DNA of 64,000 nucleotides, from IMG/VR virus record IMGVR_UViG_3300025018_000091. One strand, 5' to 3'. Origin of the DNA: a virus. Taxonomy: Duplodnaviria > Caudoviricetes. A program made the translations under genes and the position numbers. The notes beneath the pieces are model-generated. The model made no database searches and was not told where the DNA came from. It worked only from the letters and a program-made list of their open reading frames with translations. This document shows, piece after piece, positions 15,848 through 63,722 of this stretch. The stretch's first letter is position 1. Each line of letters opens with the position of its first letter.

Positions 15848-16528
15848 TCAATGCCTACGAGAATTTTCTTCGTCTTTTGGTTCTAAAATTATATCTCTTA
15901 TTTGTTGTAACATAGCTAAGCATTCTTTTTTAGAATTAATTTTATCTAAATCAAATTGAACTGCTCTAAATCCAAATTCTTTAGATACAAGTAAATTTTG
16001 TGATAAATCGTCTAGATATACACATCCAGTAAACTTGGGGTATCTTTGAAGGAAACTTTGATAATATAGGGATTGTGGCTTTCTGACGCCAATATCACAA
16101 CTAAAATGTCTAATTGCATGTTTGAAGATACCATGATGATGCATGTTAGTATATTCTGTATTAAAAAATCTATTTATCATTTGGGCATGATCTGTACCAA
16201 CATTTGATAATAAGGCAATATTAATCTGATTATCATCATCGTACATTTTTTCAAAGAAATCTAAAACACTCCAATCAAAAACTACAACTTCTTTATCCCA
16301 AATAGTTAAAATCTTGTCCATAATTACAGAAGATTTAATTTGAAATTCAGAAGCTAATACATCTTTCATATCTAACAAACCAACATCCCGCATCTTTTGT
16401 GAACGATTGACTCTTTGACCAACCTCCCATGTAGATATATTTGTTGCCTCTGATATTGCAAAAGTAAATTTTCTAAAATCTATTCTGCACAATACATTTC
16501 CCATATCTAAAGCTAAATATCTTTTCAT
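15848..16528 (-). CDS. HAD-superfamily hydrolase
   Basis: LALDMGNVL, LLSN, FSCDIGVRKP, YLDD. Confidence 0.85.
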   Translation of the reverse strand: MKRYLALDMGNVLCRIDFRKFTFAISEATNISTWEVGQRVNRSQKMRDVGLLDMKDVLASEFQIKSSVIMDKILTIWDKEVVVFDWSVLDFFEKMYDDDNQINIALLSNVGTDHAQMINRFFNTEYTNMHHHGIFKHAIRHFSCDIGVRKPQSLYYQSFLQRYPKFTGCVYLDDLSQNLLVSKEFGFRAVQFDLDKINSKKECLAMLQQIRDIILEPKDEENSRRH

Positions 16529-17511
16529 ATATCTTCTATTCTTTCATGTAAAAATTTAATGTTTTCATCATATCTTGTATTAACTGATTTTGAAAAATTT
16601 AAATCACTATCTAAATCATAAATAATATCACTTAATCCAAAATGTTCTGATGCCAGACTGTTAATAATGCATTCTGTATCATTATAATCTATTGTAATTA
16701 AACTATATTTACCATTGTAGTATGCATCAGCCAATAAACTTGTTTGACCACTGCAAACAAATAAGTTTGCATTATATAGATTACATGTATATTCATCAAT
16801 ATTTGACATGTCTTTCAATATAATGTTAGGATAATCTTCATTACAATCTTCAGAAAAAATAATAGAGTCTGTGTATCTTTTTAGAAGACCAATGATATTT
16901 TTATTGGGTTGAATCATTCCTGCCACAATATTATGTTTACATATCACAGATGGTTTACCAATAGTATGATAAGGTCTTATCCATTCAAATTCTTCTTTTA
17001 ATTTCAAATCACTATTTGCATCTCCTAAATGAGAATATACAAAATTATAATTGGAATTATCAATCATATTCATAATCCTTTGATTATTTAGAGGAACTTT
17101 ATGAAATAGATAATAGAATCTTTTGAAGAGACCTAAGTTATATTTCTGTTCTTGTGGCAATGCAAAATTTAATAATGAAGAGCTGCATTGCCATAATGTA
17201 GTATTCAATACCATAGCAATATGAGATGTGAAATATTCACAGTCACTTATTATCAAATCAGGATTAAAACTTTTTACTTGATGAAAATATGTTTCAAAAT
17301 TTTCATTGTCTAATGATATATGCTCTGGTTTGAACATATTATAAAGACAATCTAAGGTCCAATCTATATTGATATTATTAGGACTGGATTTTTTATATGT
17401 GGCTATTTTTAATTGATGTGGCTGATTTTTTATTGCATCAACAAATCTCTCCAATTGGATTTTAGAATTAGTATGATTAGAACATGCATACAATATTTTT
17501 AATCTATCCAT
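16525..17511 (-). CDS. Putative GT-B-fold glycosyltransferase-like protein with a replacement N-terminus
   Basis: KILYA, PDLIISDCE, FVCSGQTSLLADA resemble GT-B nucleotide-binding segments; ATG overlaps the endonuclease stop. Confidence 0.55.
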   Translation of the reverse strand: MDRLKILYACSNHTNSKIQLERFVDAIKNQPHQLKIATYKKSSPNNINIDWTLDCLYNMFKPEHISLDNENFETYFHQVKSFNPDLIISDCEYFTSHIAMVLNTTLWQCSSSLLNFALPQEQKYNLGLFKRFYYLFHKVPLNNQRIMNMIDNSNYNFVYSHLGDANSDLKLKEEFEWIRPYHTIGKPSVICKHNIVAGMIQPNKNIIGLLKRYTDSIIFSEDCNEDYPNIILKDMSNIDEYTCNLYNANLFVCSGQTSLLADAYYNGKYSLITIDYNDTECIINSLASEHFGLSDIIYDLDSDLNFSKSVNTRYDENIKFLHERIEDI

Positions 17512-18215
17512 GATTTATTGTTTTTTATTCTAGATATAGTATCTCTATGTACACCAAATAATACCGCAATTTTTTTATTAGAAACACCCCGCGTAATAAG
17601 ATATCTAATAATATTTACTTGTTCTTCAGTTAATTTAGCTGTAGCTAAACGATGTTCCTTACTTTTAGGAATACCTCTTTTAGATTGTGATATTTTATTG
17701 CAAAAATCTTGAGATCTTTTTCTGCCTTTTAATGGTGAGTTTTTATTTTGATTTGGATGTTTTCCTGGTTCATATTTATTGGTGAGAGATTTGGATATTT
17801 TTTCTTTTATATCTTCAGGTGTTGATTTACCTTTATTCCAAGGATCTTTTCCCAAATGCGCTTCAGATATTTTACGTCTAGCCTCTTTAGACATTTTATG
17901 TCCAGAAGTTCCGTCACCACCATCAGTTAAATTGTATAGGCAGTATCCATCATTCTTTAATTTTAGAATCCATTCTTGTTCAAGAGCAAATGCAATATTT
18001 TCTTCTACAATATCATCTACTATAGATGTTAATAAAAAATTATCATACCCATATTTATTTAAGGCAGCATGTAAATAATAATATGAATTTGGATATTTTG
18101 TTTTTCCACCTCTAGCGATTTTTAAGTGATCTCTAAATCTATCATGTAAATTTTTAGTTTTACCAACATAAATTTTACCATTTATTGTATTTATTAAAAA
18201 ATATATGCAATACAT
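17499..18215 (-). CDS. GIY-YIG homing endonuclease with NUMOD3 repeats and C-terminal HTH
   Basis: CIYFLINTINGKIYVGKT, YNLTDGGDG, RRKISEAHLGK, SRIKNNKSW. Confidence 0.92.
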   Translation of the reverse strand: MYCIYFLINTINGKIYVGKTKNLHDRFRDHLKIARGGKTKYPNSYYYLHAALNKYGYDNFLLTSIVDDIVEENIAFALEQEWILKLKNDGYCLYNLTDGGDGTSGHKMSKEARRKISEAHLGKDPWNKGKSTPEDIKEKISKSLTNKYEPGKHPNQNKNSPLKGRKRSQDFCNKISQSKRGIPKSKEHRLATAKLTEEQVNIIRYLITRGVSNKKIAVLFGVHRDTISRIKNNKSWID

Positions 18216-18292
18216 ATTATATTACAATAATATTGATAGAAGCAGCAAGCGCCATAATTATTTGATGCCGCATATAATATCTTTAATTTCAT
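18194..18292 (-). pseudogene. Stranded N-terminal fragment of the 16525..17511 gene
   Basis: 32-codon mini-ORF MKLKILYAASNNYGA..., ATGA-coupled to the exonuclease stop, matching MDRLKILYACSNHTNS. Confidence 0.75.
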
Positions 18293-50933: not shown

Positions 50934-51250
50934 AAAAATGCCTTTAACTTTTTTGTTTTCTTAAATAAACGAATTAATTCAGACTCTTTTGCATGAAGAA
51001 TAGCGCACCGTGCCATAGAATCATTTAAAGTGATGTCATAGATATAATAAATAACTGTTATATCATCTGAGGACCAATCATAATCATTATTTTCTAATTC
51101 TGATAAACATATTTCTGCTATATCTTCTCTATCAATATTAACATGTATTGTAGCAAATCCAATATTATATATGTTAATTACATCTACAATAAATTTGGAA
51201 CTACAAACACCAACTTTAGAAAAAAAATCTATACAATTAAGTATCTTCAT
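50930..51250 (-). CDS. Hypothetical protein ending KTKKLKAFL
   Basis: 106-aa ORF, ATGA-coupled on both sides. Confidence 0.65.
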   Translation of the reverse strand: MKILNCIDFFSKVGVCSSKFIVDVINIYNIGFATIHVNIDREDIAEICLSELENNDYDWSSDDITVIYYIYDITLNDSMARCAILHAKESELIRLFKKTKKLKAFL

Positions 51251-51849
51251 ACAACTCTATCTAATATAGACATATCTAAACCTAAACCTTCTACACTAAC
51301 AAATGCATAATCTAGATCTGCTGGTTTATCTGTCATTTGTTTTAGAAATGCTAAATCACCATATGTAGAAATATTAAACCCAAAGGAACTGAAAATATCT
51401 TTATATTTATCGGGAAGCGGAGTTGAGCGATCAATAGAATTATTACTTAATTTACTATTCAATAACACATTAAATTTGTATTCATTCATTATGCCTTCAA
51501 CAGTCATAAAAGATATAGAGGTAAGCCTACGCTTAGCTTTAGTTACCTTATTTAAATAAACCCAATCAATATATTCTTTTAGAAGAACGGGGTCAGAGGT
51601 TAGGTTTGATGCCAACTTTTTAACTTGAAAAACCTCAAAAGATTTTGATGGCGCGGGGCTATTGAATTTGAATTTGTACTTCACTTTATATGTGTCATAA
51701 TACTTTTTGCAAAAATAACCTAAAATATGCGGGACTTTCCATTTAGAAGTATCTAAAGAATCAATCTCTTCAAATTTCTCAAAAAGCCGTTTATATTTCT
51801 CATTGGGAACATCATTTAAGTTATAATAAGAATCATTTAGTGAGTTCAT
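51247..51849 (-). CDS. Conserved hypothetical protein in the replication operon, with a replacement N-terminus
   Basis: 200-aa ORF; ATG overlaps the HNH gene stop. Confidence 0.75.
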   Translation of the reverse strand: MNSLNDSYYNLNDVPNEKYKRLFEKFEEIDSLDTSKWKVPHILGYFCKKYYDTYKVKYKFKFNSPAPSKSFEVFQVKKLASNLTSDPVLLKEYIDWVYLNKVTKAKRRLTSISFMTVEGIMNEYKFNVLLNSKLSNNSIDRSTPLPDKYKDIFSSFGFNISTYGDLAFLKQMTDKPADLDYAFVSVEGLGLDMSILDRVV

Positions 51850-52652
51850 TGTATATTTCCTGAGTGTCTAGATCTTGTTACGCCGTCTAGAACATTTTGT
51901 TTTGAAGGATATGGTCTAAGATTTGTAAGACACCAACATTTATTGAAATTATCATCTGCCATAGACATATATGGCAAATCAGATTGTGGAATAATATGGT
52001 CTATATTCCATGTCCATGTAGATTGATCATTGTCATTCCAAGTTTTTGAATCATATTTACCATAATTGCTCCAGTTCATCCAAGGCTCAAAGTGTTGTTC
52101 AAGATGTTGTTTTAGTTCCATTATTGTATAGGGCAAATACTGTAATATAGATTTCCCTGATTTTGATCTATTATTGGCAGCTAAAGATATCCAAATACTT
52201 GTAGACAATCTGGATCTTAATTTAAAAGCAGGATCTATAGATTTTCTATTTTTTGAATATGAATTGTTTTTAAGGCGAATTTTATCTATGTTATTTTGAG
52301 CATATTGTTTTTGGTATTCTGCTATTTCTTGTTTATGATCTAAAATATATTGTTTGTGATATTCTTCAATCTTCTCTTTATTGTCTTTTGCATATTTTTT
52401 ATTTCTAGATAATTCGCGTTCTTTATTGGTGATATAGAAATTTTTCCTGTAGACACTTCGCTCTTTTTGATGCTTAAGATAATATTCTTTATTATTTTTT
52501 GATATAGTCATCTTATTTTTTAATTTATATTCTTGCACTCTTTTATTATAGCACTCTTTACAACATTTTCTATACGCTTTAGAGTCGGCTCTAAAATGGA
52601 AACTATCTAATTCCTTGTCTTTACCACACATGTTGCACTTTATTGTATCCAT
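51846..52652 (-). CDS. HNH-type endonuclease (putative homing endonuclease)
   Basis: N-terminal CxxC...CxxC, basic helical repeats, FEPWMNW.NYG, WNIDHIIP, NLRP. Confidence 0.85.
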   Translation of the reverse strand: MDTIKCNMCGKDKELDSFHFRADSKAYRKCCKECYNKRVQEYKLKNKMTISKNNKEYYLKHQKERSVYRKNFYITNKERELSRNKKYAKDNKEKIEEYHKQYILDHKQEIAEYQKQYAQNNIDKIRLKNNSYSKNRKSIDPAFKLRSRLSTSIWISLAANNRSKSGKSILQYLPYTIMELKQHLEQHFEPWMNWSNYGKYDSKTWNDNDQSTWTWNIDHIIPQSDLPYMSMADDNFNKCWCLTNLRPYPSKQNVLDGVTRSRHSGNIQ

Positions 52653-52655
52653 GTT

Positions 52656-52763
52656 TTACCTCTGATTGCATACAATAATATGTACGGGTTTCCAATATAA
52701 TTTGCGATAGTTTTCGTTCGGCGCGTCTGTCAACGAGCCGCCCGTGGTATCTTTTTCTTTCAT
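52656..52763 (-). pseudogene. Stranded N-terminal fragment of the 51247..51849 gene
   Basis: GGAG RBS plus 35-codon ORF MKEKDTTGGSLTDAPNENYRKLY..., matching LNDVPNEKYKRLF. Confidence 0.78.
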
Positions 52764-56922: not shown

Positions 56923-57051
56923 TTATCTCAAATTATTTAACAACTCCGACCACTCTCTTCTAGTTAAAGGTACTTGTAAATTTTCTTTAAAGTTTTGGAT
57001 ATTTACTGGAAAATCATCAAATCTTTTATTTACTTGTTTTATATCATTCAT
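56923..57051 (-). CDS. Small hypothetical protein (42 aa)
   Basis: Below the cutoff; MNDIKQVNKRFDDF...WSELLNNLR, start overlaps the endonuclease stop. Confidence 0.5.
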   Translation of the reverse strand: MNDIKQVNKRFDDFPVNIQNFKENLQVPLTRREWSELLNNLR

Positions 57052-57748
57052 TTGTATTCCATGTTTTTCCAGAGATAATATTTCCTATTGTGACAGCCGA
57101 AACTCTATACTCTTTAGATAAAGCAACTTTAGTATAATTTCCTGTCTTCCATTTCTCACGAATCTCTTTCACTTTCTGTATTGTAAGTTTTGAATGAGCA
57201 TTATTTTCGCCAGCACACCTACCTTTTGATGAATCTCCAATTTTCTTTTTTGACCATTCTGAGTGTGTTCGTCCAAAAAATGGATTACCATCTCCAGAGA
57301 ACATAATACTCATTTTCCGTAATGTTTCTAGAGATTTTTTCTTACCAAACATGGGATTTCCTTCTCCACTCATTTTCAATGACATTCTTCGTTTATGATC
57401 ATTGGACAAACTTATTGAGTCAAAAACCTGACCTTTTTCGTTATATCCGTATCCATCATCTTCTGAGTTATAAAACTTAATATAGTATAGTTCCCTGTCA
57501 CAACTATCACCAAAACTATTACATTTCTCAAAAACTTCAAAAATAAAATGTTCTGACCCTACAGAACTAATTTCTCTATGTATTTTTTGATGTGTTAAGT
57601 TGTTATCTAATATATGTTCAGCATAATAGTTATGTTGTCTATACCTATATCTGGGATTTTTTGTCCTACCAATATAAACCTTATTATTAAGTAAGTTTGT
57701 TATTTTGTATAAATAGTAAACATCATTAAAGGGACATATATATCTCAT
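57044..57748 (-). CDS. GIY-YIG homing endonuclease with NUMOD3 repeats
   Basis: YLYKITNLLNNKVYIGRT, GYNEK, GEGNPMFGK, GNPFFGRTHS, HTH; ATG 57748 overlaps the rfbB stop. Confidence 0.9.
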   Translation of the reverse strand: MRYICPFNDVYYLYKITNLLNNKVYIGRTKNPRYRYRQHNYYAEHILDNNLTHQKIHREISSVGSEHFIFEVFEKCNSFGDSCDRELYYIKFYNSEDDGYGYNEKGQVFDSISLSNDHKRRMSLKMSGEGNPMFGKKKSLETLRKMSIMFSGDGNPFFGRTHSEWSKKKIGDSSKGRCAGENNAHSKLTIQKVKEIREKWKTGNYTKVALSKEYRVSAVTIGNIISGKTWNTNE

Positions 57749-58701
57749 TTCAAAAACCACTGGTTTGCAAGATACCATTGCACTGTTTGCTGTATACCAT
57801 TAGGAAAAGTGTACTCTGGCATCCAACCTAAAGCTCGAATTTTAGACGAATCAACACTATATCTAAAATCATGCCCAGGTCTATCCTTTGTAAAGGATAT
57901 GAGTTTATGCCCGTCCTTCATAACATTACAGACTTTTTGCACAACTTCTATATTACTTAACTCTTGATTAGCTGAGATATTATAAGTTTCATTTGGTTCA
58001 CCTTTAGCAAGAATAGTTAACAAAGCTGAACAATTGTCAAAGACATGAAGCCAATCTCTCATTTGTAATCCTTGACCATAGATAGGTATCGGATTACCTT
58101 CCAATATGTTTTTTATTACTTTAGGTAAGAGCTTTTCCGGTGTCTGCCTATGTCCATAGTTATTGGAAGATCTTGTAATGTTGTAAATTAAACCATGAGA
58201 TTCATGAGCGGCTTTTACCATTAGCTCTCCAGACGCTTTAGATGCTGAATAAGGGTTTCTGGGATTTAACGGCGCATCTTCAGTCCAAGAAGGCTCTGCT
58301 TCGCTTTTTAAATGACCATATACCTCATCAGTAGATATATAAATCAATTTTTGTACACCATACTTAATGCAAGCATTTGTTATTACTTGAGTTCCCAATA
58401 CATTGGAAGTTACAAATGAATTGGGATCACTTAAAGAATAATCAACAAACGTCTCTGCTGCACCATGTATAACAATATCTGGCTTTTCAAACTGGAAAAT
58501 TGTATCAATAACGTGTTGGTCTCGAATATCAGCTATATGAAAAGTATGATTCTTATTCCAATACATTGAGTTAATTGCATTTGAATTAACTCTATCTATA
58601 CTTACGAAAGTATATGGATGTTTTTCATAAATAGCTTTACGTATAAAATTACCAAATATGAATCCGCAGGATCCAGTAATTAAAACTTTTGGTTTACTCA
58701 T
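57745..58701 (-). CDS. rfbB: dTDP-glucose 4,6-dehydratase
   Basis: LITGSCGFI, HGAAETFVD, ISTDEVYG, PYSASK, NNYG..Q.PEK, RDWLHV, DRPGHDFRY. Confidence 0.93.
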   Translation of the reverse strand: MSKPKVLITGSCGFIFGNFIRKAIYEKHPYTFVSIDRVNSNAINSMYWNKNHTFHIADIRDQHVIDTIFQFEKPDIVIHGAAETFVDYSLSDPNSFVTSNVLGTQVITNACIKYGVQKLIYISTDEVYGHLKSEAEPSWTEDAPLNPRNPYSASKASGELMVKAAHESHGLIYNITRSSNNYGHRQTPEKLLPKVIKNILEGNPIPIYGQGLQMRDWLHVFDNCSALLTILAKGEPNETYNISANQELSNIEVVQKVCNVMKDGHKLISFTKDRPGHDFRYSVDSSKIRALGWMPEYTFPNGIQQTVQWYLANQWFLK

Positions 58702-58704
58702 AAC

Positions 58705-59532
58705 TTACCTGTTGTAAAGATTAAACTTTCTATCTTTTTCGTATATATCTTGGTCTAAGCAATAATGCTTTTCCCACTTATTTTTTAAATAGATTAGGTT
58801 GTGATTCAAAAACAATCTATTTGTTGGCACTTTTTTAAGAGAGCTACTGTCTTCATGATAGATATTGGTGCCACCACAGTACACAATCTTTTTTTCCATA
58901 TTATACTTAATAGCTAAACATAAATCAACATCATCAAATCCCCAATGATATTTTTCATCCATACCATTATTACCTGATTTTTGATTGTGATGTGCTGCCT
59001 TAAAGTATTTAGCTTTAGTTAAAAGAACTGCCCCCGTAACTACCTGAAATAAACGGTTTTTTTCAGCATCATTATCAGATTCATCATTTAATCTAAAATG
59101 TGCTGGTGCTTTATGATTATTATTGAAAACAACACCTGCATGCTGTAATTTATTAGTATCTGTAAATAATAATCTAGCCCCAACTACACCAATATGAGAA
59201 TCTTCTTCCATTAATTTAATCATTTTATTGATTGATGTAGTGTCATTAAATATAACATCATTATTTAACAATAACACATAATCATTATCATTTGGGGCAG
59301 CCTCATTAAAACACATATTGGTGCCTTGTGAAAAATTCTGCAAATTATTGTGATATGGTATTAATTTTATATTACCTTCCCAGTCAGACACAACATCTAT
59401 TGTCCCGTCTGTTGATGCATTGTCTTTGATAAACCAAGTATAATCAATATCAGATAAAGAATGCAGCAGCGATTCTTTTAATTTAGTTAGTTTATCTATT
59501 CCGTTCCAAGTTAGTGTTAATATATGTAACAT
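58705..59532 (-). CDS. GT2 glycosyltransferase
   Basis: LTWN, DNASTDG, NFSQG.N, LLLNND, VTGAVLL, DDVDLC. Confidence 0.9.
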   Translation of the reverse strand: MLHILTLTWNGIDKLTKLKESLLHSLSDIDYTWFIKDNASTDGTIDVVSDWEGNIKLIPYHNNLQNFSQGTNMCFNEAAPNDNDYVLLLNNDVIFNDTTSINKMIKLMEEDSHIGVVGARLLFTDTNKLQHAGVVFNNNHKAPAHFRLNDESDNDAEKNRLFQVVTGAVLLTKAKYFKAAHHNQKSGNNGMDEKYHWGFDDVDLCLAIKYNMEKKIVYCGGTNIYHEDSSSLKKVPTNRLFLNHNLIYLKNKWEKHYCLDQDIYEKDRKFNLYNR

Positions 59533-59541
59533 ATTCTACCT

Positions 59542-60549
59542 TTATAAAGCGGTTCTTAATCCACCCATAACCGCTATATCTCCGTTTGTTCCAAAATATA
59601 ATGATGGACCCACGTATGTATTATTCATAAGAGGAATGTGTTTTCCTACATTATACGCAAACGGCGTAACTACTCCTTGCAGTTTGCCGCTAACTATTCC
59701 ATAACCAAATCCAAGTTGTAAGAATGAAAAATCAGGCTGATTTTTATATCTTCCATATGACATAAACCCTATATCCAGGTTAGGCGCAAATTCAGCATTC
59801 ATTTGTGACAAATTTAAACCAGTATCAACCCCCATAAATAACCTGGGGTTCCAAAAACTAAAACCAGCTTCAGGATACTCCTGCTTAGAAACTGCTTTAT
59901 CAATTCTTAAATCATATGATCTGCCATCTACAACTACAGTGAATTTATTATAAATGTATTCTCTTTGATTTTCATCAACTCCAGTAACCGTGGTTACTCT
60001 ATATTGTCTCGGTAATACATTTATATACCATGGATCTTTTTTCCATGCAGAAAATCCAACCTGACCAAATGGCACAGATGTATTTCCAAATTGTTCTGAT
60101 AAATCTAAATCTTTACGTGCCGCCATATATCCAAAAGGATCTGCATTAGGACACGGAACTTGGGTTCCATTACAATCTACTGTTGGTGTTTGTGGATTAG
60201 GATTAGTAGGACCCGTATTGGTACTTGGTACATTATCCTTTTTTGTTCCATTACTTACAACCGTAACAACATTTATGGATTTAATCTCTGCATGCAACTT
60301 ATCCATATCATTTCGAATTGCATCTAATGCTACACCATTATTTTTAGCAAATACTTCAATATCTTTTCTTGTGGCATATTCGCCCATACTACGAGTTATT
60401 CCGTCAGTTAATTCTTTTTGTTTAATAACTTCAGTTTCTATAGCTTTCTGTCTTTCTGAAATTTCAAATTGCTTATATATTATTAATGAAGTTGCACACA
60501 AAGCAACAATAACGCCAACTGTAATTAATATTTTTGTTAGTAATGACAT
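59542..60549 (-). CDS. Membrane-anchored protein with a coiled coil and beta-strand-rich C-terminus
   Basis: N-terminal hydrophobic helix ILITVGVIVALCATSLIIY; alternating-pattern strands in the last ~100 aa. Confidence 0.7.
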   Translation of the reverse strand: MSLLTKILITVGVIVALCATSLIIYKQFEISERQKAIETEVIKQKELTDGITRSMGEYATRKDIEVFAKNNGVALDAIRNDMDKLHAEIKSINVVTVVSNGTKKDNVPSTNTGPTNPNPQTPTVDCNGTQVPCPNADPFGYMAARKDLDLSEQFGNTSVPFGQVGFSAWKKDPWYINVLPRQYRVTTVTGVDENQREYIYNKFTVVVDGRSYDLRIDKAVSKQEYPEAGFSFWNPRLFMGVDTGLNLSQMNAEFAPNLDIGFMSYGRYKNQPDFSFLQLGFGYGIVSGKLQGVVTPFAYNVGKHIPLMNNTYVGPSLYFGTNGDIAVMGGLRTAL

Positions 60550-60597
60550 GATAACCTTAGAGGTATATAATTCCTGTACACCTCCACCTATACCAAA

Positions 60598-60654
60598 TCA
60601 TTTCATCCATTTATTTACAAAAATATCTCTGGCTGATTTATACAATTGGTAACT
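60598..60654 (-). pseudogene. Stranded C-terminal fragment of the 61594..62280 glycosyltransferase
   Basis: Frame reads SYQLYKSARDIFVNKWMK-stop, matching TYKLYKNARSIFIKKWEK. Confidence 0.78.
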
Positions 60655-61597
60655 TTTTTCTATTTCCAGCACAATCGGGGCACCAATGTCCCCTTTCTAT
60701 AGAATATCCAATAGCTGTCCATATATGTCCATTTTTACATTTCCAAATTAATTTTGTATTATAATTAATATATATATTACTCAAACACTCGCCATCCCTA
60801 TTTTTTGCCAACTCTTTATATTTTTGGATTTTATCAGAGTATAATTTGGTTAAATCCAAAAAAATATCTCTAGGTATAAATCCATATTCTATTAAAATAT
60901 TATTAATTATATCAGTAATTGATTTTAAATTAACATGATTATTGAAATATGGAATTAAAATCAATAAAACATTATTTTCTGAACATAATTTTTGTTTAAG
61001 TAAATCATCTTCTTTTCTTTTATCTAATTGTTTTTGAGTTTTAATAAAAAAACCATCTATTTCATAATGTTGAATTCCTTGATATTCAAAAGCAATTTTT
61101 AATTCAGAATTAAATCCATCTAATTCTAATAATGATCCTGATTTTTTTCTTAACCATTTTGGTTTAGCCTTAGAAAACGGTTTTTTAAAAAATTGTTCAA
61201 AAAATAATCTACATATATTCTCTCCAACATGAGTATTGCAAATAGGGCACCAAGAATTTTTTGATTTCACATTATTAAAATTTGCCTTCCATATATGTCC
61301 AAATTTGCACTCCCATTTTAATGCTGTGGCAGAATTTACATATTTTGTAGATCTACAATAACCATCTTTGGATTTAGCAAAATATATACAGTCTTGTAAT
61401 GTTAATTTTTTATTTTGAGAACAAACTGGACACCATTTACCACATTTAATATTTGCTGGAGATGCCCGCCAAATATGACCAAACTCACATTCCCATAATA
61501 ATTTAGAATGAATAGATACATACTCTTTAGATAAACATTTTCCGCCTTTATCTACTGCATATTTATTGCAAATAGATAAAAAATCATATTTGGTCAT
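60638..61597 (-). CDS. PD-(D/E)xK-type endonuclease with repeated zinc-ribbon modules (putative homing endonuclease)
   Basis: Three GxCLS..Y...KL.W.C..GH.W...WCP.C modules around ELDGF...IAFEYQG.QHY; ATG 61597 overlaps the GT stop. Confidence 0.8.
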   Translation of the reverse strand: MTKYDFLSICNKYAVDKGGKCLSKEYVSIHSKLLWECEFGHIWRASPANIKCGKWCPVCSQNKKLTLQDCIYFAKSKDGYCRSTKYVNSATALKWECKFGHIWKANFNNVKSKNSWCPICNTHVGENICRLFFEQFFKKPFSKAKPKWLRKKSGSLLELDGFNSELKIAFEYQGIQHYEIDGFFIKTQKQLDKRKEDDLLKQKLCSENNVLLILIPYFNNHVNLKSITDIINNILIEYGFIPRDIFLDLTKLYSDKIQKYKELAKNRDGECLSNIYINYNTKLIWKCKNGHIWTAIGYSIERGHWCPDCAGNRKKLPIV

Positions 61598-62280
61598 TTT
61601 ATTATATGTTTTTCCCATTTTTTTATGAAAATACTTCTTGCATTTTTATATAGTTTATAAGTATTTAACTGCTTACTACTGATTTTACCAAAATGAACAA
61701 CCGGAATATCTACGACACTTAATTGTATTCCCTTTTCTCGTGCTCTAAAAGATAAATCGGTATCTTCAAAGTAACAAAAGAACTCTTCACTAAATATCTC
61801 TTTATTACCAGAAATATCTAATTTTTGCCATATTTCTTTTGAACTAGCAATACACCAACCAGATAGATATGACCTTTTAGTTGGAAGTTGCCCATCTGCT
61901 TCCATTACAAATTCTAATTTATCATTCAATAATCCCATTGTTGGTCCACATAAAGCATCTGAACACTTATCAATAAGCGGCTTTGTCCAATCAGAATAAT
62001 TAGATTTAACTCTGATATCATTGTTTAAAAACAAAACATTAGGGGCGCTGGAATATAAATAACCATAATTACACCCACTTGCAAATCCTGAATTATGACC
62101 CATTTCTTTATACACAATTTCTTTTGAATTTTTTAATTGAGATTTTGTTTCATCTGTACTACCATTATCTATGATAATTATCTCATGATCATTTGATAGT
62201 TGAGATAAGTCTTTTAAACATGATTTTGTAAAGTTATATTTATTAAATACAGGAATAACTATACTTAATATCTTATTCAT
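61594..62280 (-). CDS. GT2 glycosyltransferase with a replacement C-terminus
   Basis: SIVIPVFN, IDNGSTD, GFASGCN.G, FLNND, YFEDTDL. Confidence 0.9.
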   Translation of the reverse strand: MNKILSIVIPVFNKYNFTKSCLKDLSQLSNDHEIIIIDNGSTDETKSQLKNSKEIVYKEMGHNSGFASGCNYGYLYSSAPNVLFLNNDIRVKSNYSDWTKPLIDKCSDALCGPTMGLLNDKLEFVMEADGQLPTKRSYLSGWCIASSKEIWQKLDISGNKEIFSEEFFCYFEDTDLSFRAREKGIQLSVVDIPVVHFGKISSKQLNTYKLYKNARSIFIKKWEKHIIK

Positions 62281-62695
62281 TAAGATTCTCCATTTTACTT
62301 AACTTAGTTATTGCTTCAGGATTTACTAAACTCATACTAATTGTTTCATGTACAGCCCATCCAAGTAATAAATGTCTATTAGATTTAATTATTCTTTTTC
62401 TTGGATCAATAATTATAGTATTATGATCAAATGGTTCTAATTTTGGAATATCTGGTCCTAAAACTTCAATATCCATTCTAACAGAAACTTCCTCAAGTAA
62501 TTTTAAATCTTCAAGTTCTATAATTTCTCCGGGAAAACATAGCTTATTTTCTTTAAGATACAAATTAGATTTAGGAAGATATGTAATACTATCTTCATTT
62601 ACAGAGGTTAATAATTTTTTGTGTAACTTTTCCCCAAGTATATTCAGTAACCAGTTCTTGCATTTTAGGAGAGAATTTTGCATGGTAGCCTCCAT
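62273..62695 (-). CDS. Hypothetical protein, start uncertain
   Basis: The track ORF overlaps the GT4 gene by 101 nt; the true start is probably downstream of 62595. Confidence 0.5.
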   Translation of the reverse strand: MEATMQNSLLKCKNWLLNILGEKLHKKLLTSVNEDSITYLPKSNLYLKENKLCFPGEIIELEDLKLLEEVSVRMDIEVLGPDIPKLEPFDHNTIIIDPRKRIIKSNRHLLLGWAVHETISMSLVNPEAITKLSKMENLNE

Positions 62696-63722
62696 AATTA
62701 TTCACAACATCTTTTAACGCCTGAGCCGCTTTATCAACATCAGGTTCAAATACTTTTGCATATGGCGATGGTTCCCAATATTGCATTCTTTTATCTGCTC
62801 TAATTTCTTTTCCATCTATTAGAACGGAATTATCATCGTTCATAAAATCTAATTGACCACCATAACGAGGCGCAACAACAATTTTATTAGCTCCAAATCC
62901 TTCTAAACCTGGCATCCAAAAACATTCAGCATGAGACATTGAAAATACAATATCACAAGCATTGTATAATGATTCAATATCTGTAATAAAATGATCAATT
63001 ATCTCTACTTCACCACGCTTTTTATATTCCATACAAAAATCTCTATAAATATCATTGAATGGTATACTGCTCGTATGAGTATGTGATTGTGGGCTGGTTC
63101 TTGATACCTTCAAAACCAAACAAACATCATCACTTTTAGTAAAAGCTTTACCATATGCTTTCAAAACATTTGGAATATTCTTTCTAAGATGTGGTTGAGC
63201 TATATTAACTAATATTTTATATTTCTTTTTAGTTTTTAGTGGATATTTATCTGCCGATTTAAACTTATCTAAATGTATACCATGTGGAATAACAACTTGA
63301 TGATCTGATGGCATGCCATTATCTGTAAATATCTTTTTAGAAAAATTAGATGACGGTAATACTTTATCTACAGATTTATAATATTTTGCAAAAGCAGGTG
63401 GTAAAACTGTTGTCTCGTAATTCCAAATTCCAAATCTATTTTTATCGCCTCTTACAAAATAATAAGGAAAATTCTTAAGTGCAGTATAGGATAGTTGACA
63501 TTCGTATAATTTATCTGGCTCTCTACCGAAAATATGTTGAGGTTCATTTTCATTTATGAATCCAACTAAATTATTTTTAAGATCATTTGGGAAATATGTA
63601 TTTCCATTTGTTGAAAATATATGTACTTCATTATTTTGTTTAATCAACTCTCTACATATATTTTGAGCTACAATTGACCAAGAAAAGTTTTTGGCAGCAA
63701 AACCATACCATAAAATCTTCAT
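62595..63722 (-). CDS. GT4 (GT-B) glycosyltransferase
   Basis: VIPHGI, RKN, YNACD..F..S.AECF.MP.LE, YGGQLDF, YTW. Confidence 0.9.
   Translation of the reverse strand: MKILWYGFAAKNFSWSIVAQNICRELIKQNNEVHIFSTNGNTYFPNDLKNNLVGFINENEPQHIFGREPDKLYECQLSYTALKNFPYYFVRGDKNRFGIWNYETTVLPPAFAKYYKSVDKVLPSSNFSKKIFTDNGMPSDHQVVIPHGIHLDKFKSADKYPLKTKKKYKILVNIAQPHLRKNIPNVLKAYGKAFTKSDDVCLVLKVSRTSPQSHTHTSSIPFNDIYRDFCMEYKKRGEVEIIDHFITDIESLYNACDIVFSMSHAECFWMPGLEGFGANKIVVAPRYGGQLDFMNDDNSVLIDGKEIRADKRMQYWEPSPYAKVFEPDVDKAAQALKDVVNNYGGYHAKFSPKMQELVTEYTWGKVTQKIINLCK

Follow-up and report, generated by a model that had tools for sequence, protein, structure and literature searches.

A predicted free-standing Vsr-like endonuclease gene between a chimeric glycosyltransferase gene and its stranded native end in an uncultured jumbo phage

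A gene for a predicted free-standing endonuclease was found at the end of a GT2 glycosyltransferase gene in IMG/VR record IMGVR_UViG_3300025018_000091, DNA of an uncultured jumbo phage found in full in one aquifer metagenome run; the protein of the window lies on a contig of 444 kb. The stretch analysed, called the window below, is 64 kb long; all coordinates refer to it as a whole, and all operon genes listed are on the minus strand, in a tightly packed operon for sugar modification. The GT2 gene (61594..62280; 228 amino acids; Pfam Glycos_transf_2, E-value 1.3e-15) is followed by the predicted endonuclease gene (60638..61618; 326 amino acids), whose nuclease domain, residues 126–248, is encoded at 60875..61243. 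At 60598..60654 there is a second version of the GT2 end, SYQLYKSARDIFVNKWMK and a stop codon, which lacks a start codon and lies in a different frame from the endonuclease gene; it is referred to as the stump. A spacer (60550..60597) separates it from the gene of a membrane-anchored protein (59542..60549; 335 amino acids), which belongs to the resident context and is syntenic in nearly all related loci.

The preliminary description of this DNA had read the GT2 gene as ATGA-coupled to the endonuclease gene, and the segment 60654..60598 as a GT2-end-like fragment that overlaps the last endonuclease codons in another frame. Both readings were confirmed. The GT2 C-terminus reads ..KQLNTYKLYKNARSIFIKKWEKHIIK, and its TGA lies within an ATGA whose ATG is at 61597. 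From this alternative start the endonuclease would have 319 amino acids; the longer frame of 326 amino acids, the one taken by the gene caller (P0001), begins at 61618 with an ATG inside the GT2 Lys-Trp codons (A-ATG-G). At its other end, the endonuclease stop codon TAA (60640..60638) falls within the stump. The working GT2 end and the stump are identical at 11/18 residues and 34/51 bases, and their ungapped BLOSUM62 score is 61, while the runner-up anywhere in the six frames of the window scores 29; a match by chance is excluded.

Which of the two ends is native was judged from about 55 related loci, taken from IMG/VR and from metagenome contigs of 350–480 kb. At the flanking genes, the closest relatives are L038 and L039, with amino acid identities of 75% for the GT4-like transferase (L038), 65 and 62% for the membrane protein and 80 and 81% for the second GT2 of the operon; the membrane protein is only 43% identical to that of L053, which bears the endonuclease. 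Both L038 and L039 are without an endonuclease of this type (DUF4379/Vsr-like, see below), and in L038 nothing lies between the GT2 and membrane-protein genes. Their GT2 proteins end in ..TYQLYKSAREIFVNKW(K/Q)K. The stump matches these endonuclease-free ends at 43/51 nucleotides and 14/17 amino acids (L039) and at 42/51 nucleotides (L038), compared with 35/51 nucleotides for the working end, the top match of which is to L043 and L046 (41/51). In addition, TGATTTGGTATAGGTG, comprising the GT2 stop codon and 13 spacer bases (60600..60585), is identical to L038 at 16/16 positions (L038:4203-4218). Since the stump best fits L038 and L039 and is continuous with the native stop codon and spacer, the alignments indicate that it is the resident GT2 C-terminus, still in its original position. 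The identity of these 16 bases, between phages with only about 75% identity in their coding DNA, may reflect a conserved signal ahead of the membrane-protein gene.

The working GT2 gene, as judged from identities, breakpoints and trees, is a chimera of an L038/L039-type 5' part and a 3' part of the endonuclease-bearing type. Over codons 1–150, its nucleotide identity is 75 and 74% to L038 and L039, at most 68% overall to other alleles and 59–65% to the endonuclease-bearing ones. Over codons 160–204, it is 80% to L118, 79% to L123, 77% to L122 and 76% to L125, all of them endonuclease-bearing, and 62–64% to L038 and L039. The window and the endonuclease-bearing alleles also have in common a deletion of about 10–19 codons and the motif FFCYFEDT where L038 and L039 have FGIAYFEDT. 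Maximum chi-square analysis placed the breakpoints at GT2 nucleotides 445–490 (about 61791–61836 in the window) and, in two comparisons, at 542–557 (permutation p = 0.0005–0.05). In the maximum-likelihood tree of the 5' part, the window forms a clade with L038 and L039 (ultrafast bootstrap, UFBoot, 98), while in that of the 3' part it stands with L118 and other carriers, and splits of 81–88 separate it from L038 and L039. The resident 5' two-thirds would thus be codons 1 to about 150 (61831..62280), and the imported 3' third codons about 151–228 (61594..61830), with the working C-terminus ..TYKLYKNARSIFIKKWEKHIIK.

The imported tract, from about 61830 to about 60655, would comprise some 70 GT2 codons and the whole endonuclease gene. 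In both the window and L053, its right end lies only a few bases from where the endonuclease gene naturally ends: the protein ends in ..CAGNRKKII in L118 and ..CAGNRKKIK in L125, and in the window ..CAGNRKK is followed by LPIV, so that the last four codons and the stop come from the junction and the stump. This right joint, within a few bases of 60655–60660, is A-rich, and no convincing microhomology could be assigned to it by eye. The C-terminal helix of GT2, LY..A(R/K)..F..KW, is conserved across all related loci, and truncation of the protein ahead of it would probably be harmful. FFCY, in place of G(I/L)AY, was found in 8/9 intact endonuclease carriers and about 8/28 non-carriers, an association that may be due to linkage or phylogeny and was not used to infer a target site. 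The comparison of the related loci agrees with the earlier proposal that the old C-terminus was displaced downstream and a working end brought in. The replacement reaches further than the 18 repeated codons, over about 70 codons of GT2.

The product of the 326-codon open reading frame (ORF) contains three DUF4379 (PF14311) treble-clef zinc-finger stretches (Pfam E-value 6.4e-12; cut-off 24.5 bits). A total of 364 homologues were found, and many of the longer ones also match the CapR domain PF21817. An AlphaFold model built on 30 homologues (predicted local distance difference test, pLDDT, 87) consists of two zinc-finger modules, an alpha/beta domain at residues 126–248 and a third module. With VIA-align, the alpha/beta domain was superposed on Vsr (1cw0_A; Z-score 8.9, 107 residues, 3.2 Å), on the catalytic domain of the homing endonuclease I-Bth0305I (3r3p_B; Z-score 7.8, 98/98 residues, 3.3 Å) and on RAP domains (Z-scores 7.9–8.6). 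Residues E133, R137, E141, E165, D167, E178, Q183, H184, D205 and K208 are conserved in the 30 homologues and intact here, and E165, D167, E178, H184 and D205 could supply an E-D-x-H-D motif. It took the full VIA-align pass to resolve the nuclease domain: a Foldseek search of the PDB with the whole model gave no match at an E-value of 0.001 or better, profile searching against PDB sequences found no match above chance level for the nuclease domain, and Pfam returned nothing meaningful for the isolated domain.

The model is that of a predicted nuclease with a Vsr-like PD-(D/E)xK fold and three DUF4379/CapR-type zinc fingers, and the label of PD-(D/E)xK zinc-ribbon endonuclease, given earlier from the letters of the window, was broadly right. 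CapR has been defined as a DNA-binding module of phage homing endonucleases (PMC10448857), and CapR/DUF4379/DUF723 repeats combined with an EDxHD/Vsr-like domain are described as a type of homing endonuclease that occurs in group II introns of phages and has thousands of relatives still unannotated (PMC12350094). By its fold and architecture, the protein of the window would be a free-standing homing endonuclease of this recently recognised CapR/DUF4379 plus Vsr/EDxHD-like type.

The order of genes is conserved in the about 55 loci: GT4-like transferase, GT2, a variable slot, membrane protein, second GT2 and epimerase. In the window, the GT4-like transferase is at 62595..63722, with a 140-amino-acid ORF between it and the GT2 gene; the second GT2 is at 58705..59532 and the epimerase/dehydratase at 57745..58701. 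The slot is empty in L038, L043, L044, L046, L050, L067 and others. In many loci, with or without the endonuclease (for example, L001–L005, L118, L122, L123 and L125), it holds a gene for an Fpg/Nei-like glycosylase (start MPEGPEV..), which is absent from the slot in the window and in L038. Because an unrelated GIY-YIG endonuclease gene occupies the same slot in L039 (L039:4299-5153), the spacer between the GT2 and the membrane-protein genes can be regarded as a hot spot for unrelated endonuclease genes.

A homologue of the endonuclease is present in the slot of L053/L054, L079, L085, L096, L118 and L122–L125, and absent in about 35 relatives. In L080 (L080:4184-5325), it has decayed into three ORFs of 76, 140 and 147 amino acids, and the GIAY motif, which is typical of empty alleles, occurs in the L080 GT2. 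The longest endonuclease frame starts from an ATG in the invariant GT2 Lys-Trp codons (AAA TGG) in L053, L096, L122, L123, L124 and the window. The GT2 alleles of carriers tend to end in KWxxRIKK, and their last 5–13 residues are encoded by the 5' end of the endonuclease gene in the other frame.

Stranded GT2 ends were found in carriers besides the window. In L053/L054, an orthologue with 61% amino acid identity is followed by a stump of 22 amino acids, GQLNTHELYSKARKIFIQKWQK, which is nearer to endonuclease-free ends (L050 76%, L067 75%, L001 79%) than the L053 working end, ..TYSLYCKSRIVFINKW.., is. In L096, a 40%-identical homologue is followed by the stump KWTGRADAILRK, identical at 12/12 residues to the L068 end, and by an overlapping start of the next gene. 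The three stumps, of 18 (window), 22 (L053/L054) and 12 (L096) codons, each resemble a different type of resident allele, and from their lengths and likenesses they are read as probably separate events. Downstream of the endonuclease in L079, L085, L118, L122, L123 and L125, no stump was detected at an E-value below 1e-3, and L124 gave only a doubtful gapped match (E-value 0.03). The endonuclease is therefore resident without a stump in other phages, and the duplication is not required for residence; it is read as a scar of arrival.

A contig of 305 nucleotides from the source sample (depth 4.7, compared with 17) matches 61774..61741 and 60642..60584 with 86–91% identity. Exactly 90 bases lie between the two matches, as expected for an uninterrupted GT2 gene (61741 - 61650 - 1). 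By its geometry, this contig of a related phage weakly suggests an empty allele that occurs alongside carrier alleles. Contigs from three further aquifer runs covered the stretch only in part and were uninterpretable. A DNA search with 59500–63000 against 50,697 GenBank phage records yielded no match, and tblastn with the GT2 found only relatives of 25–31% identity.

Further DUF4379 endonuclease homologues, full or fragmentary, occupy intergenic sites elsewhere in the operon of the relatives (L053:3162-3527, L067:3333-3473, L118:9525-10688 and L123:1357-2379, and upstream of the GT2 gene in L042 and L047). In L118, a 150-kb contig, a gene similar to IS605 OrfB/TnpB (L118:2544-3689, minus strand) lies between the GT4-like and the GT2 genes; its protein is also encoded on a 479-kb contig. 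L088 has a different arrangement: at L088:3477-4620, a 54-amino-acid N-terminal fragment of GT2 is fused to a C-terminal fragment of the GT4-like protein (..AAKQILELCVK) and precedes a complete GT2 gene, after which come a second copy of the GT2 C-terminus, QKLKLSNLYNQSRKTFLELWEKR, and a stop-riddled DUF4379 zinc-finger relic. From its layout, L088 looks like a cassette replacement scarred on both sides.

The preliminary description had suggested comparing the flanks of genes with the termini of neighbouring proteins, and this was done for the window and the related loci. In an unbiased scan of the window, 146 gene termini were compared with their own 1.5-kb flanks, and the scores of 292 random-region controls served as the null distribution (99th percentile 33, maximum 40). 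Tandem paralogues (95, 81, 66, 55 and 51) and three non-genic fragments scored above it: the GT2 stump (67), a fragment at an HNH-like gene (44) and one at a GIY-YIG gene (41). Each of the three non-paralogue matches spans an endonuclease gene, and none was found at the about 130 other termini. With eight endonuclease-adjacent termini among about 140, finding three of three there has a p of about 1.3e-4, so that such matches are enriched beside endonuclease genes, as had been anticipated. A second GIY-YIG/NUMOD3 gene (57044..57778), which shares 34 nucleotides with the 3' end of the epimerase gene, showed no detectable stranded terminus on either side, and a further HNH-like gene sits at the edge of the window, beyond what the flank scan can judge.

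In the GIY-YIG case (16525–18292), the endonuclease gene, of the GIY-YIG/NUMOD3 type, is at 17499..18215, and the stranded mini-ORF upstream of it reads MKLKILYAASNNYGA, while the working start reads MDRLKILYACSNHT. In L126, which belongs to the L038 genome (L126:1912-3490), the exonuclease gene and a gene that starts MNSLKILYAASNNYSS are directly coupled, with no endonuclease between them. This start shares LKILYAASNNY with the stranded mini-ORF (11/11), and the stranded copy is therefore the native one. In the HNH-like case (51247–52763), the gene at 51846..52652 has a D-H..N..N motif recognised by eye, and no HNH model of Pfam matched it. Among the loci compared (L128–L136), endonuclease-free relatives start M..K.D.TGGELT.(A/V)PNE.., like the stranded MKEKDTTGGSLTDAPNENYRKLY, and the working start, MNSLNDSYYNLNDVPNEKYKRLF, resembles L127. 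L133 offers a parallel (L133:1542-3064), with a stranded fragment of 58 amino acids, an HNH-like gene and the working gene.

We propose, with a probability of roughly 0.78, that the endonuclease gene arrived together with a foreign 3' third of GT2 in a lateral exchange of the homing type, which left the resident end stranded. In a clade of aquatic jumbo phages of roughly 350–480 kb, the endonuclease gene would reside at the end of GT2, overlapping its last codons. An exchange with an endonuclease-bearing relative would have copied in a tract of about 1.2 kb, made up of the last 70 or so GT2 codons of the donor and the whole endonuclease gene. The left joint would be due to homologous recombination inside GT2, near codons 150–160, and the right joint would be illegitimate, fusing the last endonuclease codons to a point in the resident GT2 that lies 18 codons ahead of its stop. 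In this way, GT2 would stay whole with an end of the donor type, and the resident end would persist as an untranslated stump before the native spacer and the next gene. We infer that the enzyme is active and that the trigger was its own cut, made in or near the 3' region of GT2 in an empty allele during co-infection; repair of the break would then have produced the structure. In these terms, the event would be intronless homing, or lateral exchange, with co-conversion upstream and an illegitimate joint downstream, which amounts to homology-facilitated illegitimate recombination. As GT2 would work only after events that bring in a complete replacement end, such insertions would be the ones to survive in an operon with overlapping genes.

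Several observations weigh against this proposal. Between phages, the endonuclease has diverged about as much as its neighbours, a pattern also compatible with long residence by vertical descent and a loss now and then. L088 has stranded GT2 termini and no intact endonuclease, and such scars can therefore arise or persist without one. Over the 51 nucleotides alone, 43 and 35 matches do not differ significantly (Fisher p = 0.10); this comparison is insufficient by itself, and the case rests on the combined evidence. The best donor sampled is only 80% identical in nucleotides over the imported GT2 piece and 66% identical in amino acids for the endonuclease, and since no close donor was sampled the event is not recent. 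The order of events is a reconstruction from distant relatives, and the nuclease assignment derives from fold and architecture, with no sequence-level match to Pfam or the PDB.

The three nuclease folds in this part of the genome had earlier been credited with a shared strategy for entering coupled operons. The GIY-YIG and HNH-like cases do match endonuclease-free relatives in their stranded copies, and the generalisation stands for this window; the "strategy" is probably survivorship of those insertions that keep the host gene whole. Likewise, the duplication is probably a scar rather than a dedicated device, and a dedicated strategy is disfavoured because of the stump-free carriers and L088. 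It is conceivable, although doubtful, that in this phage clade conserved codons at the ends of genes are targeted by endonucleases from three or more families, which travel as selected "rescue cassettes", each consisting of a nuclease gene and a cleavage-immune replacement terminus. Such cassettes might, again speculatively, enable the invasion of operons with overlapping genes, and the candidate immune difference would be FFCY instead of G(I/L)AY before YFEDT. If this were true, the stumps would record the positions of joints and targets, and the sequence by itself would suffice to map target sites across the genome.

It is unlikely that related phages simply exchanged DNA in a general patchwork fashion, by homology-facilitated illegitimate recombination, with the endonuclease gene as a non-causal passenger. 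One homologous and one illegitimate joint would suffice for such an exchange, the endonuclease is diverged as much as its flanks, and the stranded N- and C-terminal GT2 pieces of L088 surround a complete GT2, near which only the relic of a decayed zinc finger is found. Against a passenger role stand the fact that all three above-null, non-paralogue matches in the window span endonuclease genes, with 0 at the about 130 other termini, and the recurrence of the same gene with three different stumps. The tract also ends a few bases from the endonuclease stop in the window and L053, as it should if tracts spread because they carry the complete gene.

If the last 18 codons of GT2 had been duplicated locally in tandem in this lineage, with the endonuclease gene then inserted between the copies and ordinary divergence afterwards, no foreign GT2 would be needed. 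Such a history would explain why the copies are direct repeats flanking an inserted gene and why they are only moderately identical (34/51 nucleotides). It is very improbable and already disfavoured, because the untranslated copy is nearer to the closest relatives than the working copy is and because the foreign ancestry reaches about 50 codons upstream of the repeat, including a shared insertion/deletion. It is hardly credible that the ORF encodes a domesticated nuclease in permanent residence, such as a Vsr-like enzyme of repair or anti-defence that acts with the Fpg/Nei glycosylase, and that the stump is a relic of an unrelated rearrangement: the GT2–endonuclease–Fpg arrangement is stable in L118, L122, L123 and L125 and the fold is that of a mismatch-repair nuclease, but some close relatives have the gene and others lack it, additional copies or fragments occupy other intergenic sites (L042, L047, L053, L067, L118 and L123), the L080 copy has decayed, the architecture is like that of proposed homing endonucleases, and the window has no Fpg gene.

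The homing-type exchange that we favour has parallels in several known systems. The free-standing homing endonucleases of T-even phages, such as SegF, SegG, SegB and MobE, which are cited in PMC8351571 and PMC10448857, bring about intronless homing with co-conversion of flanking markers. As in those phages, the gene of the window is placed between conserved genes or at their ends and is patchy in relatives, the mosaic boundary is at the nuclease gene, and a tract of the flanking host gene was carried along. The T-even cases involve homology-based repair on both sides and no duplicated end, whereas here the right joint is illegitimate, a stump is present and the activity is predicted. In Rhs/CdiA-type loci, homology-facilitated illegitimate recombination displaces gene ends, and toxin tips are exchanged under diversifying selection. 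A homologous anchor and a non-homologous joint would likewise have pushed the old gene end downstream in the window; unlike in those loci, the new end is functionally equivalent to the old one, and what is carried in is a selfish nuclease gene.

With I-Bth0305I (PDB 3r3p) and the endonucleases of PMC12350094, the predicted protein shares the Vsr-like fold and repeated treble-clef modules of about 60 amino acids. It differs from the group II intron endonucleases of PMC12350094 in being free-standing and in having its nuclease domain between modules (two before and one after) instead of at the C-terminus, and from I-Bth0305I in that its domain has no sequence-level match to the solved one. It thus adds a free-standing representative to a newly noticed type of zinc-finger plus Vsr-like endonuclease.

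The mechanism is not new, its signature being already known from fungal mitochondria. Full-text literature searches, the coverage of which was incomplete, found no phage paper on replacement and stranded termini at free-standing endonuclease genes. What the locus provides is a clean, polarised record of invasion by a predicted homing endonuclease in an uncultured jumbo phage, with donor-type tract, recipient-type stump, empty alleles, decayed copies and a putative co-occurring empty allele. The signature, a gene terminus repeated beyond a nuclease gene with the untranslated copy nearer to relatives, would reveal recent endonuclease-driven exchanges and their direction. It can also aid annotation, as stumps and chimeric genes are easily mis-called, and the choice of candidate target sites for rare-cutting enzymes.

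The closest likeness is to the mobile ORFs (mORFs) of fungal mitochondria, which form gene hybrids in atp6 of Allomyces macrogynus and in atp6, atp9, cox2 and nad3 of Glomus (PMC3630166, citing Paquin et al. 1994). In these hybrids, the downstream native C-terminus is 91–98% identical to that of a close relative and the inserted one 64–81% (PMC3630166). The window has the same elements: a host gene followed by an endonuclease ORF, a C-terminal piece of foreign origin that continues the frame of the gene core, and the native C-terminus stranded downstream and nearer to the close relative than the inserted end is. It differs in that the setting is a tailed jumbo phage with a Vsr-like zinc-finger nuclease, not an organelle with LAGLIDADG or GIY-YIG enzymes, and in that the endonuclease gene overlaps the host gene out of frame, with no in-frame fusion and a stump of only 18 codons. 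The case of the window works like an mORF but lies outside the mORF group.

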